From an uncultured virus (IMG/VR IMGVR_UViG_3300031951_000045) (lineage: Duplodnaviria; Heunggongvirae; Uroviricota; Caudoviricetes): DNA of 53,891 nt. Positions 20,547 through 26,845 of this stretch are shown here, piece by piece. A program made the translations under genes and the position numbers. Below the pieces are notes generated by a model. That model made no database searches, was not told where the DNA came from, and saw nothing but the letters and a program-made list of their open reading frames with translations. Position 1 is the first letter of the stretch; each line of letters begins with the position of its first letter. The DNA lies in IMG/VR virus record IMGVR_UViG_3300031951_000045; one strand, 5' to 3'.

Positions 20547-21548
20547 ATGAGTTTTGTTGATTCCAAATACATCGGGCTGGTATCTTCCCGACTGGATAAG
20601 TTTGCTAAGAAAAAAGAAGGTCTTTATAACTTTCGGTGCCCTTACTGCGGTGACAGTCAAAGGACAAAGAGTAAGGCAAGAGGATATATTTACCAATTAA
20701 AGAACGACCATAATTTTAAGTGTCATAATTGTGGAACTTCTAGAACATTTACAAACTTTCTCAAAGACTTAGATGTTGTTCTTTACGACCAGTATGTGAT
20801 GGAAAGATATAAAGAAGGAACTACTGGAAAAAGGTCTCAAACAAAGAACCCAGAGTTTAAGTTTGAGAAACCAAATTTTTCAAAAAAGGCATTTGACCTG
20901 CCTACCATCGCAGAACTAAATAAAGAACATTCTGCAAGAAAATACTTAGAAGATAGAAAAATACCTAACAACTATCTGTGTGAATTGTATTTCTGTGAAA
21001 AGTTTAAAGAATGGACCAACACGCAAAAACACACCTTTGATAAAGTAGAACGGGACGAACCACGAATTATTATTCCTTTAATCAATAAAGGAGAAATATT
21101 TGGATTTCAAGGTCGTAGTTTAAATAAAAAATCAAAGGTGAAATACATTACAATTATTCTTGATGATACACATCCAAAAATTTACAATTTGGATAAACCA
21201 GACTACGACAAAATTGTTTATGTTGTTGAAGGACCAATTGATAGTATGTTTTTGGATAATTCAATTGCTATGGTTGGTGCAGACATCGATAAAATGTTTT
21301 TCATATCCAACTTTGCAACAGAATTTGTAATGGTGTATGACAATGAAAAACGAAATAAACAGATCGTAGATAGAATGGAAAAAGCAATACAAATGCGATT
21401 TCCAATCGTCATTTGGCCGAATGACTTGAAAGAAAAGGATATTAATGATATGATCCTTTCAGGAATTGATGCCCCAAAAATCATCAAGGAAAATACTTAT
21501 ATGGGATTAGAAGCAAAAGCAAAACTTATTGGATGGAAACGAGTATGA
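20547..21548 (+). CDS. gp61: DNA primase gp61
   Basis: CPYCGDS..CHNC zinc finger, FQGR, VEGPIDS TOPRIM, KDIND. Confidence 0.96.
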   Translation: MSFVDSKYIGLVSSRLDKFAKKKEGLYNFRCPYCGDSQRTKSKARGYIYQLKNDHNFKCHNCGTSRTFTNFLKDLDVVLYDQYVMERYKEGTTGKRSQTKNPEFKFEKPNFSKKAFDLPTIAELNKEHSARKYLEDRKIPNNYLCELYFCEKFKEWTNTQKHTFDKVERDEPRIIIPLINKGEIFGFQGRSLNKKSKVKYITIILDDTHPKIYNLDKPDYDKIVYVVEGPIDSMFLDNSIAMVGADIDKMFFISNFATEFVMVYDNEKRNKQIVDRMEKAIQMRFPIVIWPNDLKEKDINDMILSGIDAPKIIKENTYMGLEAKAKLIGWKRV

Positions 21549-23239
21549 GCAACGGTACAAAGGTAATTAAGAGAAGTGGTGATAATGAACCTCTTGATCT
21601 CAATAAACTTCACTTAATGGTTGAGGAGGCATGTAGGGACCTCTCTGGTGTTTCTGCATCACAGGTCGAGATGCAATCTGGTATTCAATTCTATGATGGA
21701 ATTACAACAGCAGAAATTCAGGAAATTTTAATTCGTTCTGCATCTGATTTGATTGATTTGGAAAATCCAAATTATCAATTTGTTGCAGCAAGACTACTTC
21801 TGTTTTCGGTGAGAAAATCTTTGTATGGAAGAGTTCAAGATCATCCTACTTTTGTAGATCATATTAAGAAATGTGTTCTTGCTGGAGTATATGATCCAGA
21901 AATCTTGACTAACTATACAGAGGAAGAACTTAATCGTCTTGGTGGTTATATTAATCATAACCGTGATTATCTATTTACTTATGCTGGTCTTCGTCAAGTA
22001 GTTGATAAGTATCTTGTTCAAGACCGTAGTGCTGGGCAAGTATATGAAACTCCACAGTTCATGTATATGATGATTTCTGCGACTATTTTTGCTAGATATC
22101 CAAAAGAAACTAGAATTTCTTATGTCAAACGATACTACGACGCAATCTCCAAACACAAAATCAACATTCCCACACCTATCATGGCAGGAGTGCGAACTCC
22201 ACTTCGACAATTTGCTAGCTGTGTTCTTGTTGATGTTGATGACACCCTCGATAGCATCTTTAGTTCTGATATGGCTATCGGCAGATATGTTGCACAAAGG
22301 GCGGGAATCGGCATCAACGCAGGTAGAATCCGTGGCATCAACGCTAAAATCAGAGGTGGAGAAGTTCAGCACACAGGTGTTGTCCCATTCCTCAAAAAGT
22401 TTGAAGCAACTGTCAGATGCTGCACTCAAAATGGCATCCGTGGTGGATCAGCAACTGTCCACTTCCCAATCTGGCACCAAGAGATCGAAGACATCCTAGT
22501 ATTAAAAAATAACAAAGGAACCGAAGACAACCGTGTTCGTAAGTTAGACTACTCTATCCAAATCTCTAAACTGTTCTATGAACGATTCATCAAGAATGAA
22601 GAGGTCTCTCTCTTCTCCCCACACGCAGTTCCTGGTTTGTATGATGCTTTTGGAACTGATGCTTTTGACGAGTTATATGTACGTTACGAACGAGATGAGT
22701 CTATTCCTAGAAAGACTATCGGAGCTCAAGAACTCTTTTTGGACCTCCTGAAAGAACGTGCTGAAACTGGTCGTATTTACATTATGAATATCGACCACTG
22801 CAACTCTCACTCATCCTTTATGGATAAGGTTGAGATGAGTAATCTTTGTGTTTCTGGTGATACTAAAATCAAAATTAGATATCCAGAACCCATTTATAAT
22901 GATATTGGTGAAGTATCTGATTGGAGAGTTTGTGAGATTGAAATTCATATTGAAGATTTAGAAATTTACCTTTCTGATAGGATAGCTATAATTGCATGTC
23001 TTTGTGATGATGTTCCTCAAATAGAAGTTCTTTCTTATAATATAGAAACTAATCAACAAGAATGGGCACCTATTACAGCATTTGCCGAAACATCACCAAA
23101 AGCAAAGGTAATGAAAATTACTGATGAAGAAAGTGGTAAGAGTATTGTAGTTACACCAGAGCATCAAGTATTCACAAAAAATCGTGGATATGTAGTGGCA
23201 AAAGACCTAACCGAAACCGATGAGTTGGTAATTAACTAA
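21545..23239 (+). CDS. nrdA: Class Ia ribonucleotide reductase alpha, N-terminal part fused to split-intein N-fragment
   Basis: ATP cone, PTPIMAG..QFASC, RRG-like IRGG region, up to EMSNL; then the intein from CVSGDT to a stop codon. Confidence 0.95.
   Translation: MSNGTKVIKRSGDNEPLDLNKLHLMVEEACRDLSGVSASQVEMQSGIQFYDGITTAEIQEILIRSASDLIDLENPNYQFVAARLLLFSVRKSLYGRVQDHPTFVDHIKKCVLAGVYDPEILTNYTEEELNRLGGYINHNRDYLFTYAGLRQVVDKYLVQDRSAGQVYETPQFMYMMISATIFARYPKETRISYVKRYYDAISKHKINIPTPIMAGVRTPLRQFASCVLVDVDDTLDSIFSSDMAIGRYVAQRAGIGINAGRIRGINAKIRGGEVQHTGVVPFLKKFEATVRCCTQNGIRGGSATVHFPIWHQEIEDILVLKNNKGTEDNRVRKLDYSIQISKLFYERFIKNEEVSLFSPHAVPGLYDAFGTDAFDELYVRYERDESIPRKTIGAQELFLDLLKERAETGRIYIMNIDHCNSHSSFMDKVEMSNLCVSGDTKIKIRYPEPIYNDIGEVSDWRVCEIEIHIEDLEIYLSDRIAIIACLCDDVPQIEVLSYNIETNQQEWAPITAFAETSPKAKVMKITDEESGKSIVVTPEHQVFTKNRGYVVAKDLTETDELVIN
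22847..23236 (+). mobile_element. Split intein N-fragment (130 aa)
   Basis: Block A CVSGDTKI, block B VVTPEHQVFT, ends GYVVAKDLTETDELVIN-stop. Confidence 0.93.
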
Positions 23240-23243
23240 TAGG

Positions 23244-23297
23244 ATAGGGAGTGTAATTTCTACATTTTATAAATAGTTATGAGATTACACTTCCTAT
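23244..23297 (+). promoter_or_regulatory. 17-bp RNA hairpin covering the endonuclease translation-initiation region, with late promoter TATAAATA in the loop
   Basis: ATAGGGAGTGTAATTTC (23244-60) pairs with GAGATTACACTTCCTAT (23281-97), two G-U pairs; TATAAATA at 23268-75; ATG at 23299. Confidence 0.8.
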
Positions 23298-23298
23298 T

Positions 23299-23970
23299 AT
23301 GAAAACCTATATTGTATATAAAATTACGAATAAGAAAAACGGAAAGTCTTATATAGGAAAATCTGAATATCCATTAGAGCATCGTTGGAATCGTCATTTA
23401 TCATCAGCAAGAAATGGTTCTAAATTTAGATTTCATTCTGCTATTAGAAAATATGGGGAAGATTGTTGGGACTTATCTGTGATTGAAACTTACCAAACTG
23501 AAGATGAAAACTTTATTAATGAAAAGGAAACTCACTTCATTAAACTCTTTGAAAGTGATACTAAAGGTTATAATGCTACTTCGGGGGGAACTGGTGGATG
23601 GATGCTTCCAAGATGCTCACAGGAGGTTCAGGAAGAGTGGAGAAATGGTATTTCCATAAGAACTATTGGTTACAATAATCCAAACTATTCTGGATACACT
23701 GATGAGGAACTCATAGAAGTAGGTGTAAAGTTTGCTAAAAAATATGGATTTATTGGTGGAAGGAAAAGAATAGTTGAGTTTGCTCTTAGTGAATTAAATA
23801 TTAAGTTTCCAAAACATTTCTCCAAAAATAGATTTGACGGAAACCATCAAAACTTTTATAAATCTATTGAAGAACAAACTGGATTGGTGTATAATCCTTA
23901 TTATAGAGACGAAACTCAAAGAAAACTTGCTAAACAACTTTTAGAACAAAATAGGAGAAAAAAATGCTAA
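23299..23970 (+). CDS. Free-standing GIY-YIG homing endonuclease inside fractured nrdA
   Basis: YIVYKITN..KSYIGKS..RW..H..AIRKYG..E..I..GYN.T.GG. Confidence 0.9.
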   Translation: MKTYIVYKITNKKNGKSYIGKSEYPLEHRWNRHLSSARNGSKFRFHSAIRKYGEDCWDLSVIETYQTEDENFINEKETHFIKLFESDTKGYNATSGGTGGWMLPRCSQEVQEEWRNGISIRTIGYNNPNYSGYTDEELIEVGVKFAKKYGFIGGRKRIVEFALSELNIKFPKHFSKNRFDGNHQNFYKSIEEQTGLVYNPYYRDETQRKLAKQLLEQNRRKKC

Positions 23971-24062
23971 AGATTGAATATCTTGAAGAAGAAATCCCAG
24001 TTTATGATATTACAGTAGAAGGAACTCATAATTTCTTCGCAAATGATATTCTAGTCCATAAT
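23964..24062 (+). mobile_element. Split intein C-fragment (33 aa)
   Basis: Blocks F/G: VYDITV..HNFFAN.ILVHN followed by Cys(+1). Confidence 0.93.
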
Positions 24063-25058
24063 TGCCAGGAAATTACTCTTCCAACAAAACCACTTCAACA
24101 CATTGATGATCCCAATGGGGAGATTGCACTTTGTATTCTTTCTGCTGTTAATGTTGGCAAAGTAAAGTCTGATGATGAATTTGAAGATCTTTGTAATCTT
24201 TCTGTTCGTGGTTTGGAAGAATTGATTGATTATCAAAACTATCCTGTAGTTGCTGCAGAGATTGGAACCAAAGCACGTAGATCTTTGGGTGTTGGGTATA
24301 TTGGTTTGGCACACTATCTTGCTAAACTTGGTTTTAATTACGATACTCAAGAAGCTTGGGATGCGGTTCATCAATTGTCTGAATCGTTCCAATATTTCCT
24401 TCTAAAAGCATCAAATGAAGTTGCTAAAGAAAAGGGTGCCTGTGAATATTTTAATCGCACTAAGTATTCGCAAGGTATTCTTCCAATTGACACTTACAAG
24501 AAAGATGTGGATGAAGTTTCTTCTGTTCCTCTTCATCACGATTGGGAATCGTTAAGGCAATCAATCAAAGAGTTTGGTCTCAGGCACTCCACTCTTACAG
24601 CACAGATGCCATCTGAATCCAGTTCTGTCGTCTCCAATGCCACAAACGGCATCGAACCACCTCGTGGATTTTTATCAATTAAGAAATCTAAAAAAGGTCC
24701 TCTCAAACAAATTGTTCCTCAATATCAACATCTTAAAAACAACTATACGTTGCTTTGGGATATGCCTAGCAATCGTGGTTATATTAATATTGTTGCAGTT
24801 ATGCAGAAATTCTTCGATCAAGCAATTTCTGGAAACTGGTCGTATAATCCAGAAAATTATGCCAATAATGAAGTTCCTGTTAGCGTAATGGCACAAGATA
24901 TGCTTACTTGTTTTAAACTTGGGCATAAGACGGCATATTATCAAAATACATATGACAATAAGACCGACGAAATTAAGGAGGAAAAAACTAATATTGACGA
25001 TTTGGTTAAAGAACTTTTAGAGGGGGGGGAAGACGACTGTGAATCCTGTAAAATTTAG
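23964..25058 (+). CDS. nrdA: Split-intein C-fragment fused to ribonucleotide reductase alpha C-terminal part
   Basis: AGGAG SD; 33-aa IntC ending VYDITVEGTHNFFANDILVHN, then CQEITLP..ALCILS..NGIEP..DQAISGN..TAYY..CESCKI. Confidence 0.95.
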   Translation: MLKIEYLEEEIPVYDITVEGTHNFFANDILVHNCQEITLPTKPLQHIDDPNGEIALCILSAVNVGKVKSDDEFEDLCNLSVRGLEELIDYQNYPVVAAEIGTKARRSLGVGYIGLAHYLAKLGFNYDTQEAWDAVHQLSESFQYFLLKASNEVAKEKGACEYFNRTKYSQGILPIDTYKKDVDEVSSVPLHHDWESLRQSIKEFGLRHSTLTAQMPSESSSVVSNATNGIEPPRGFLSIKKSKKGPLKQIVPQYQHLKNNYTLLWDMPSNRGYINIVAVMQKFFDQAISGNWSYNPENYANNEVPVSVMAQDMLTCFKLGHKTAYYQNTYDNKTDEIKEEKTNIDDLVKELLEGGEDDCESCKI

Positions 25059-26223
25059 AATCACTGCAGAGAAAGAAAAAATGATTCAAGGAATGACCGT
25101 ATTTAATACTCAAGAGGTAGATGCCAAAAAGCAACCTATGTTTTTTGGTGCTCCTCTTGGAGTTCAAAGATATGATTCTTATAAGTATCCTGTCTTTGAT
25201 AAATTAACTCAACAACAGTTAGGATATTTCTGGAGACCTGAAGAAGTTTCTTTGCAGAAAGATCGTTCGGATTATCAAACTCTTCGTCCAGAACAAAAAC
25301 ATATCTTCACTTCTAATTTGAAGTATCAAATTCTTTTGGATTCAGTTCAAGGTCGTGGTCCAGGGATGGCATTTGCACCTTACTGTTCACTTCCAGAATT
25401 GGAAGCCTGTATGAAGGTTTGGGAGTTTATGGAGATGATCCATAGTCGTTCCTATACATACATTATTAAGAATGTTTATTCTGATCCAACAGAAGTTTTT
25501 GATTCCATTTTAAATAATGAAAAGATTTTAGAAAGAGCATCATCAGTTACTGGTGCTTATGATGACTTTATTAATTCCGCACAACTTTATGGAAACTCAA
25601 ATCTTTGGGTTCACGCACAAGAAGGTGTTGGAACTGCAAAAGAACAAAGATATGAACTAAAAAGAAAACTTTATCGTGCAATTGCAAATGTCAACATTCT
25701 CGAAGGTATCAGGTTTTATGTCTCGTTCGCTTGCAGCTTTGCGTTTGGTGAACTCAAACTTATGGAAGGATCCGCTAAAATTATCTCTCTCATCGCAAGA
25801 GACGAAAATCAGCACCTTGTTATTACTCAAAACATCCTCAATAAGTGGCGTGAAGGGGATGATCCAGAAATGCAACAAATTGCTAAAGAAGAAGAGGAAT
25901 GGGTAAGAGGTGCCTTTGAGAATTGTGTAAATGAGGAAAAGAGGTGGGCAGAGTATCTGTTCAAAGATGGTTCTATGATTGGTCTAAACGATAAACTTCT
26001 TTGGAGTTATGTTGAATGGGTTGCGAATCGTCGTATGAAAGCAATTGGACTTAAACCACTCTATGATATTTCTGCAAAGAATAATCCACTTCCTTGGACT
26101 GAGCATTGGATTTCCTCTAAGGGACTTCAAGTTGCTCCACAGGAAACGGAAGTAGAATCTTATGTGGTTGGTGGCATTAAGCAGGATATTACAAAAGATT
26201 CTTTTAGTGGATTTAAACTCTAA
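25039..26223 (+). CDS. nrdB: Ribonucleotide reductase beta subunit (start may be 25081)
   Basis: FWRPEEV, LDSVQGR, EMIHSRSY, LEGIRFYVSF, RDENQH, VAPQETEVESY. Confidence 0.97.
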   Translation: MNPVKFRITAEKEKMIQGMTVFNTQEVDAKKQPMFFGAPLGVQRYDSYKYPVFDKLTQQQLGYFWRPEEVSLQKDRSDYQTLRPEQKHIFTSNLKYQILLDSVQGRGPGMAFAPYCSLPELEACMKVWEFMEMIHSRSYTYIIKNVYSDPTEVFDSILNNEKILERASSVTGAYDDFINSAQLYGNSNLWVHAQEGVGTAKEQRYELKRKLYRAIANVNILEGIRFYVSFACSFAFGELKLMEGSAKIISLIARDENQHLVITQNILNKWREGDDPEMQQIAKEEEEWVRGAFENCVNEEKRWAEYLFKDGSMIGLNDKLLWSYVEWVANRRMKAIGLKPLYDISAKNNPLPWTEHWISSKGLQVAPQETEVESYVVGGIKQDITKDSFSGFKL

Positions 26224-26249
26224 AATTGTAACAAAAATAACAAAAAAAA

Positions 26250-26279
26250 TTGACTATATAACGTACAAGGGAATATAAT
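26250..26279 (+). promoter_or_regulatory. Sigma70-type promoter upstream of riboswitch-like RNA
   Basis: TTGACT-18nt-TATAAT, ending 10 nt before the first aptamer. Confidence 0.65.
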
Positions 26280-26289
26280 AAGTCCCTAA

Positions 26290-26351
26290 CGTTCATCTGC
26301 TATTTGCGAATTGCGAATGTAGACGGAAGTAAGCCGACTCGGAACGGAACG
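26290..26351 (+). ncRNA. Glutamine riboswitch-like aptamer 1 (glnA/Downstream-peptide family)
   Basis: P1 CGTTC/GAACG; P2 TCTGC..GTAGA; GACGGAAGTAAG E-loop-like strand; GCCGAC. Confidence 0.7.
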
Positions 26352-26518
26352 TTCATCTATGGAAGCACTCATTCTATCTTGCTTACAAGCACAATTAATT
26401 GTAGGAAGAGTTCATAAACAAGACATTCCTAAACAAGCAAAGAATGATTTAATTTGGGAGATTAAACAAATCTCACCAAAGACGTGTAAAATAGACGCAA
26501 AAGCCGACTGAAGGAACG
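26350..26518 (+). ncRNA. Glutamine riboswitch-like aptamer 2 with ~130-nt expanded P2 loop
   Basis: CGTTCATCTAT..ATAGACGCAAAAGCCGACTGAAGGAACG repeats the architecture of aptamer 1. Confidence 0.62.
26359..26511 (+). CDS. 50-aa ORF nested inside aptamer 2 (not in ORF track)
   Basis: MEALILSCLQAQLIVGRVHKQDIPKQAKNDLIWEIKQISPKTCKIDAKAD; ATG in the P2 5' strand, TGA in the aptamer core. Confidence 0.55.
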   Translation: MEALILSCLQAQLIVGRVHKQDIPKQAKNDLIWEIKQISPKTCKIDAKAD

Positions 26519-26549
26519 CTCTTTAACCTAAAAACTAAGGAGAAACCTA

Positions 26550-26714
26550 ATGTCAAAAGTTGTATACCGTGGTGTTGAATATGACACTACAAACCGTCCT
26601 AATCAAACATTTAAATGTGAACCAAGAGTAGAAATTTATCGTGGTGCTATGTTTTATGTTGATGAAAATGGAAACAAACTTTCTATGCAGAAGTCGGGGG
26701 AAACAATTAAATGA
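26550..26714 (+). CDS. DUF4278-type small protein (54 aa, not in ORF track)
   Basis: AAGGAG SD; MSKVVYRGVEYD..EIYRGAMF with two YRG motifs. Confidence 0.8.
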   Translation: MSKVVYRGVEYDTTNRPNQTFKCEPRVEIYRGAMFYVDENGNKLSMQKSGETIK

Positions 26715-26803
26715 AAAAAATTAATGTCCTTCAACTTATTAAAGAACAAAAACAAAAAGAAAATCGTCGTCACCAAGCTAAAATAGTGATGATTAAAAAG
26801 TAA
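26711..26803 (+). CDS. Small basic peptide (30 aa, not in ORF track)
   Basis: ATGA coupling; MKKINVLQLIKEQKQKENRRHQAKIVMIKK; followed by a terminator. Confidence 0.55.
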   Translation: MKKINVLQLIKEQKQKENRRHQAKIVMIKK

Positions 26804-26807
26804 ATTG

Positions 26808-26845
26808 ATAGGAGGGGCAATACCCCTCCTATTTTTTTATAAATA
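26808..26845 (+). terminator. Terminator followed by a late promoter
   Basis: ATAGGAGGGG-caata-CCCCTCCTAT plus T tract; TATAAATA at 26838-45. Confidence 0.88.

Follow-up and report, generated by a model that had tools for sequence, protein, structure and literature searches.

Whether an RNA that carries two glutamine-riboswitch-like cores and a complete protein gene inside one of them consists of independent parts or works as one device is the question raised by a short unit (26228-26840) in the 53,891-nucleotide stretch of viral DNA analyzed here (the window). The unit directly follows nrdB (25039-26223), assigned by Pfam as a ribonucleotide reductase small chain. Further upstream, nrdA (21533-25058) presumably consists of two ORFs (21533-23239 and 23964-25058), whose facing ends we take to resemble split-intein halves, with a 223-aa ORF between them that we assume to be GIY-YIG-like. 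Since the closest named relatives of the nested ORF belong to the freshwater Synechococcus phages DSL-LC02 (84%), DSL-LC03, and S-SRM01 of the Kyanoviridae (four records), the window most likely derives from a T4-like freshwater cyanophage.

The unit begins with an NtcA-type box, GTA-N8-AAC (26228-26241, unstranded), which has one mismatch to GTA-N8-TAC and lies 32 nt upstream of the -10 hexamer of a sigma-70-type promoter, TTGACT-18-TATAAT (26250-26279), matching 11 of 12 consensus positions; the promoter and all parts behind it lie on the plus strand. Shuffles of the region contain 4.5 promoter-like sites, so that the promoter match is weak by itself. The motif CGTTCATCT then occurs twice, at 26290 and 26350, followed by the nested gene of 50 aa (26359-26511), a DUF4278-like (IF17-like) peptide of 54 aa with two YRG motifs (26550-26714), a basic peptide of 30 aa (26711-26803) whose start overlaps the upstream stop (ATGA), and an intrinsic terminator (26807-26840; stem 26807-26833, then a T run), which gets a terminator score on the minus strand as well, even though the following gene runs in the same direction. 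Sequence, ORFs, and scan thereby place the promoter, the two cores, the nested ORF, both peptides, and the terminator where an earlier note on this DNA had put them. The stem that the note described as closing a loop of about 130 nt in the second copy, TCTAT (26356-60) with ATAGA (26491-95), encloses exactly 130 nt, and the nested ORF does start in the 5' strand of this stem and stop with TGA (26509-11) in the conserved core, inside GACTGAAGGAACG. A proposed overlap of the copies at AACGTT was wrong: copy 1 ends with GGAACG (26341-46), copy 2 begins at 26350, and between them lies a variable linker, GAA in the window. Judged by the linkers of 130 related units (GAT 36, GAG 35, GGTT 11, GAA 10, and others, some longer), the overlap is an accident of the window's own linker.

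These units come from two sets of loci. One was selected by the protein (the best 80 of 187 in IMG/VR), with a bias toward a conserved C-terminus; the other was selected by the RNA 3' core alone (at least 120 stretches), with a bias toward perfect cores. Pooling 200 loci with three named phages and the window gave 272 distinct core spans; 130 distinct full double units were parsed from 169 of the 204 loci, the 35 unparsed ones having mostly short flanks or variant cores.

The arrangement of the two copies can be read from the long-range pair numbered 23-60 in the glutamine-I riboswitch (passages of PMC6212724). In the window, positions 23 and 60 are G and G within copy 1 and C and C within copy 2, whereas across the copies they give G-C twice. 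The outer of these linchpins, G26326-C26519, is Watson-Crick across copies in 130 of 130 units (72 C-G, 58 G-C); the inner one, position 23 of copy 2 with position 60 of copy 1 (C26498 and G26347 in the window), is Watson-Crick in 124 and broken in 6. Within copies the linchpin is Watson-Crick in just 72 units and mismatched in 58, and of 37 freshwater sequences, 5.4% pair at the one within-copy linchpin and 2.7% at the other. A tree of 106 nested peptides, on which the counts of changes rest on short peptides, has the outer linchpin sites changing six times each, always jointly. The P3 strands (26332-26339 and 26502-26509) behave alike: positions 1, 2, 4, and 5 pair across copies in 130, 130, 128, and 128 of the 130 units, position 3 pairs in 41 and is mismatched in 89, and cognate strands form stronger hybrids than shuffled strands do (25 types; 0 of 100,000 permutations), whereas a within-copy P3 amounts to 2 bp and has no folding energy. 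The cross pairs read AGTCG/CGACT in marine units and AGTCA/TGACT in one locus (L157); in S-SRM01 (L083, 1960-2168), a swap from A-U to C-G in P3 destroys the stop codon, and the protein extends to 55 aa. Loop E, finally, has its AGUA strand in copy 1 alone and its GAA strand in copy 2 alone and forms across copies only.

Unconstrained RNAalifold runs on the 37 freshwater sequences chose the outer P1, the inner P1' hairpin, and P2b. With the interlocked fold, 95.4% of cells are paired and five pairs show double changes (0 of 500 shuffles), versus three such pairs for a side-by-side structure; the outer P1 appears in the minimum free energy structure of seven of seven short-loop (empty) units, and the Rfam model RF01739 fits two short-loop relatives (L097 and L104) each as a single aptamer whose P3 holds the second core as an insertion (43.6 bits). 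Comparative evidence of this kind indicates that the two copies are one interlocked structure, with one core folded inside the other. The outer core is a canonical glutamine-I three-way junction, to which copy 1 contributes its first half and copy 2 its last half. Its P1 pairs 26290-26295, which holds the equivalents of C1 and G2, with 26514-26518; the P2a hairpin (26296-26323) is empty in the window; and its J2/3 (26324-26339) comprises G22 (26325), the linchpin G23 (26326), and the loop-E strand AAGUA (26327-31), running into the 5' strand of the shared P3. At the far end of P3, the inner core is a circularly permuted copy lacking loop E. It consists of the P1' hairpin GAACG-GAA-CGTTC (26341-26355), a helix predicted de novo, of the 5' strand of P2b (26356-26360), which contains the A and U of the nested start codon, and of a 3' part (26491-26509) with the second P2b strand (26491-95), an inner J2/3' without loop E (G26497, C26498), and the 3' strand of P3 (26502-09). 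The same 19 nucleotides serve as the codons I-D-A-K-A-D and the U of the stop. The remainder of the outer core (26510-26519) holds the loop-E strand GAA (26510-12), whose GA is shared with the stop codon, the 3' strand of P1, and the linchpin C26519.

That two independent aptamers stand side by side, as in the literature on tandem riboswitches, is very improbable in the light of these pairings. Single copies can score against RF01739 (31.3 bits in the window, 35.4 to 40.2 bits in six short-loop relatives), the constrained energies of the two folds are only 2.3 kcal/mol apart, and the P1 strands are invariant and identical, so that P1 cannot discriminate between them. The copies do not, however, each fold alone: their own linchpins fail, neither has both loop-E strands, and their own P3 is negligible, so that the cross-copy covariation largely refutes this arrangement. 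Of the tandem glutamine-riboswitch-like aptamers described by the earlier note, the glutamine-I-type cores thus stand, and their independence does not.

In the covariance-model search proposed for the native sequence, copy 1 matches RF01739 with an E value of 9e-5, its score falling short of the gathering score of 35, copy 2 finds no match, and the whole window has no Rfam match at gathering level. Natural short-loop alleles fare better, as 8 of 20 related loci pass 35 bits, all via short-loop cores, and in two of these eight the 3' core is identical to that of the window's copy 2. Among the features of the class, the P1/P2/P3 junction is present in the interlocked fold and the 23-60 pair in nearly all units, while loop E (AGUA/GAA) occurs in the outer core alone. 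The bases contacting glutamine in solved structures, C1, G2:C58, G22, and G59 (passages of PMC6698751), are found in both window cores. A search with RF01704 (glutamine-II) returned no match at E values up to 10, and P3 is a helix between copies. The unit is a variant of the glutamine-I riboswitch rather than a plain member. One may ask whether such a variant still senses glutamine or has passed to another ligand, a protein, or a role in RNA stability. The native score below the Rfam cut-off, the noncanonical inner core, and core deviations in 3 of 92 protein-selected loci would fit a changed role, but the complete set of contact positions in both cores, together with an NtcA box and a DUF4278-like gene that suggest nitrogen control, makes it a remote prospect.

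The closest known relative is the gifB/IF17 leader of Synechocystis, described in passages of PMC6212724, with which the unit shares the P1/P2/P3 junction, the loop-E strands, the 23-60 pair, the ligand-contact bases, a DUF4278-like gene downstream, an NtcA box in the promoter, and a linchpin base within a candidate anti-SD helix. Unlike that leader, the phage unit builds its junction from the halves of two copies, its P3 carries a second, permuted core, and its P2 loop is a protein gene. Tandem glutamine riboswitches, reported as 157 doublets and 4 triplets with pseudo-cooperativity and multiple expression platforms, likewise have two cores per leader, but the phage cores are interlocked via a shared P3 and have one downstream platform; neither "nested" nor "phage" occurs in the passages on tandem glutamine riboswitches in PMC9481103. 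The inner core resembles glutamine-II (the Downstream-peptide motif, RF01704; passages of PMC6698751) in the missing loop E, the same pocket bases, C at position 23, and G at position 60; unlike glutamine-II, the unit has no pseudoknot, and an ORF lies inside it, not just downstream. Glutamine aptamers have been annotated in the T4-like phages S-CREM1 (PMC9964418) and Melnitz (PMC9004378); in the passages available from these papers and from PMC5473149, such annotations are rare single Rfam matches without a nested gene or an interlock.

The nested ORF, to judge by its pattern of substitutions, is a real gene. The Nei-Gojobori dN/dS ratio, calculated after trimming the stem codons and discarding saturated pairs, is 0.19 in the window's own cluster and 0.19 to 0.31 in 10 of 11 clusters, so that the codon-level test suggested by the earlier note came out in favor of coding; the remaining cluster of three sequences has a ratio of 1.09, from a single close pair. 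The linkage between ORF and aptamer halves asked about there also held, well above a chance level, both RNA halves being kept around the ORF in 89 of the 92 protein-selected loci. Core spans fall into two size classes, 97 short (9 to 36 nt) and 175 long (122 to 238 nt), and all of the long spans but one (174 of 175) carry an ATG at offset 9 to 12, in the 5' strand of P2, from which a frame stays open through the rest of the loop. Stops close the two alternative plus-strand frames in 347 of 348 cases. In the second loop (slot B), 129 of 130 ORFs are in frame with the core and 125 stop inside it; since several relatives stop upstream of the core, the stop in the core is dispensable. Gene callers often place the start farther upstream, through the RNA core, as in Syn33 (L222, 626-865), giving proteins of 60 to 86 aa; the start that is conserved is the stem ATG. 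No clear SD sequence precedes the nested ORF. One locus (L013, 1501-1700) has kept the nested ORF with a decayed 3' core and no YRG gene, the gene there outliving its RNA frame.

All 174 peptides contain exactly two cysteines, and C8 and C43 are invariant in 98 of 98 members. AlphaFold2 predicts a helical hairpin for the window's nested protein (pLDDT, 86; helices 8 to 20 and 25 to 37), and in such a model the two cysteines would be joined by a disulfide. The protein is of the Syn9 gp197 type and belongs to PHROG 504; members of the family match PHROG 504, 6471, and 13397, all three without functional annotation, and GenBank notes refer to it as T4-like gene cluster 430. A profile of the family retrieved 427 representatives at an E value of 0.001, headed by two giant repeat proteins that are probably repeat artifacts. 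None of 98 members has a Pfam family, and the window's protein had no usable Atlas match and no PDB fold match at an E value of 0.001; its viral fold matches are uncharacterized phage proteins. Proteins encoded in the first loop (slot A) have a longer hydrophobic N-terminus, which looks like a signal peptide; the window's protein, with its first cysteine at position 8, is too short for one.

Two well-known types of RNA can be compared with such a gene. Leader-peptide attenuators let translation and folding compete and make a disposable leader product; here, the nested product is a conserved folded protein, and an attenuator was rejected, as the 50 aa hold five scattered Gln residues and no run of sensing codons, and the protein is under purifying selection with invariant cysteines. 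In group I introns, an endonuclease ORF sits in a peripheral loop, i.e., a frame is embedded in a functional RNA fold. The phage unit differs in having a metabolite-sensor-type RNA, and a self-splicing or excising element with a loop ORF was dismissed because the unit showed no ribozyme core, splicing signature, or intron-family match. Excision of the ORF was rejected as well, since ORF-less contigs from RNA libraries carry five different small hairpins in its place and are empty alleles. In these libraries, contigs of relatives from four of four runs fall within 26295-26787, one spanning 26322-26545; they are low-share contigs without strand or end information, and empty flanks carry no weight.

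Either loop may be filled or empty. Among the 130 units, 80 have a gene in the second loop only, 32 in both, 11 in the first only, and 7 in neither, i.e., P2a contains a homologous ORF of 61 to 75 aa in 43 units and P2b lacks a gene in 18; the genes in both slots belong to the same two-cysteine family, and natural empty units measure 86 to 94 nt. One empty double unit (L137, 586-780) is followed about 230 nt downstream by a manA RNA (188.7 bits). In Syn9, both loops are filled (gp196 and gp197), and gp198 and talC follow. A marine nested protein used as query matched 315 phage records, many of them near-identical isolates, and the double unit was present in 12 of 12 cultured-phage loci opened (8 of the 315 records, Syn9, and three freshwater phages), with exceptions in detail: Syn30 has a changed inner junction, and two phages have AAA for the loop-E GAA, losing the loop-E G while keeping the stop. 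From these counts, the glutamine sensor appears to be common and masked by its own gene. Evidence for a chromosomal copy in hosts was not obtained: the exact 3' core pattern, a search blind to diverged cores, occurs in 15 stretches among 185,579 GTDB genomes, seven of them with phage-type halves and all seven on MAG or SAG contigs, and the two inspected have phage-like neighbors. These carriers (L205, L206, L208, L210, L213, L217, and L218), from MAGs and SAGs of varied labels, are probably phage contigs binned together with cells.

Is the gene, then, a mere passenger of the RNA? The same interlocked riboswitch might control the downstream DUF4278-like gene only, with the nested gene translated cotranscriptionally before P2b closes and its position reflecting compact packing. 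Empty alleles occur often and can be interchanged with filled ones, the state of slot A, filled or empty, switches about 24 times along the nested-peptide tree, P2b closes without ligand in the model, and P2 loops tolerate inserts in the family seed: in the first 23 rows of the 2010 glnA seed alignment, broad gapped columns mark the P2 and P3 loops (PMC2864571, in part). Against this stands the start codon, which keeps its offset in the stem in both slots despite loop lengths of 142 to 238 nt. The P2b stem, moreover, covaries across 130 to 220 nt (position 3 is C-G in 96, U-A in 74, and U-G in 5 of 175 spans), and the change at position 3 alters the residue preceding a conserved Asp, so that stem covariation changes the encoded protein. 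The coding interiors also seem selected for compact folding: that of the window folds better than its shuffles (z, -3.8), and 28 sampled slot-B genes reach a mean z of -2.8 against synonymous shuffles, compared with -1.75 for downstream genes (n = 24) and -0.74 for window controls (n = 18). RNAalifold found no shared fold of the interiors; the consensus pairs there are few and weak, and a double change occurs in one of them, so that the interior represents compaction and not a fixed structure. On balance, we regard a passenger gene as rather unlikely.

Several observations connect the unit to nitrogen. Of 106 distinct upstream stretches of 100 nt (from those of the 130 units with enough flank), 94 contain the exact NtcA consensus box GTA-N8-TAC, compared with 11 of 555 windows taken as background and 3% of the shuffles, which strengthens the link to host nitrogen status suggested in the earlier note; NtcA boxes are known generally in cyanophages (passages of PMC3037559). 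A -10-like hexamer stands at the same place in 75 of the 106 stretches, and the box mostly lies 31 to 32 nt ahead of it, though its position varies. The box ends in AAC in the window; among 11 near-identical loci, it ends in AAC in 10 and in TAC in one (L006). Six matches and three cultured phages have the box over the start site, by the host rule a repressing position (passages of PMC6212724); in three loci (L220, L223, and L225), it is found behind a TATAAATA-like element and covers the start site at -13/-14, the usual position being -51/-52. The mismatch in the window's box and the variable box position count against the reciprocal switch proposed below.

Downstream of the core, a YRG/FRG motif is present in 122 of 122 units with enough flank, in line with the DUF4278/YRG linkage given in the earlier note. 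The match to PF14105 (DUF4278) stays below the cut-off of 25.3 bits for all six downstream peptides scanned (20.3 to 23.3 bits); the window's YRG peptide scores 23 bits (E value, 1e-4). A possible role of the YRG peptide, taken from its host counterparts, is to act on glutamine synthetase, though short forms lack residues needed in Synechocystis (passages of PMC6212724). An ORF at the stop of the YRG peptide is found in 42 of 46 distinct tails and is fused to it in others; the 30-aa peptide matches phrog_545 (E value, 0.0014). In five loci (L034, L037, L048, L065, and L071), the YRG and 30-aa-type peptides form one ORF, and many marine units have the two modules fused in reverse order.

The candidate expression platform is an anti-SD hairpin (26519-26542) in which CTCTTTA (26519-25) pairs with TAAGGAG (26536-42), so that it begins at the linchpin C; it appears in all three predicted folds and in tails of the C60 type. 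It is not universal: some C60 units lack it or form it only weakly, and G60 units have a different hairpin upstream of the SD. For gifB, a model has been postulated in which the linchpin C lies in an anti-RBS helix melted by the ligand (passages of PMC6212724), and because C26519 begins the anti-SD hairpin in the same manner, glutamine should switch the downstream peptides on.

From these elements, we propose a nitrogen-responsive cyanophage operon in which a reciprocal switch would favor either the nested protein or the downstream peptides, and assign it a probability of about 0.55; the interlocked pairing, the coding status of the nested ORF, its stem-fixed start codon, and the NtcA box are, at the level of sequence, already established. 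At high glutamine, the folded sensor would draw C26519 into the linchpin and weaken the anti-SD hairpin, so that the DUF4278-like and 30-aa peptides would be made, and the same fold would lock the AUG of the nested gene inside P2b, adjacent to the P1' hairpin. At low glutamine, or if a ribosome loads first, translation of the nested gene would traverse P2b, P3, and loop E and reset both cores. The idea that a ribosome on the nested ORF unfolds the second aptamer is thereby widened: because covariation shows one interlocked structure, a translating ribosome would break both cores and not only the second. Ligand-free pairing is predicted at 0.89 for P2b, 0.08 for the outer P1, and 0.26 for the inner P1', and given the value for P2b, the nested AUG may be buried regardless of glutamine. 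Further points against a reciprocal switch are the inner core, which lacks loop E and has its linchpin broken in some units, the loss of the loop-E G in two cultured phages, the lack of a clear SD for the nested ORF, the platform that is not universal, and the empty alleles.

A ribosome stopping at 26509-11 could, furthermore, open the anti-SD hairpin and so reverse the logic. In a coupled operon of this kind, ribosomes finishing the nested gene would melt the hairpin, and glutamine would shut the whole operon by burying the nested AUG. The stop lies 8 nt from the start of the hairpin at 26519, presumably within reach of a terminating ribosome, and stops in the core are the rule in slot B, but they seem dispensable, as noted above; such coupling strikes us as quite unlikely, and the reciprocal switch is retained as the preferred reading.

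A gene inside a riboswitch loop, or interlocked glutamine cores, was not described in the literature searched, which did not include Ames & Breaker 2011; no such architecture appears in the passages available from PMC9964418, PMC2864571, PMC12379486, PMC9004378, PMC6698751, PMC5473149, PMC9602691, PMC3037559, PMC8115048, PMC9481103, PMC7657543, and PMC6212724. Four motif probes of the 2010 glnA seed alignment (PMC2864571) found nothing, although alignment gaps can hide motifs. Because the gap columns of that alignment could hold such inserts, curators may have held them, and the novelty of the architecture is only probable.

A survey, in the passages available, states that phages rarely use metabolite riboswitches and counts two glutamine aptamers in cyanophage genomes (PMC5473149). 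The present units tentatively suggest, at somewhat less than even odds, a widespread architecture masked from RNA scans, in which two glutamine pockets share one helix, genes form the hairpin loops, and a reciprocal switch integrates glutamine, translation load, and NtcA. "Tandem" glutamine riboswitches can also be reread as an interlocked two-pocket RNA, which is testable on the natural empty units. Within a single mRNA, the sensing of nitrogen in the host is probably in competition with translation of the nested gene; if the proposal is true, the fold would form only on glutamine-bound, ribosome-free mRNA. With gp196 to gp198 of Syn9, the unit gives direct access to the question of how host nitrogen is read by cyanophages.
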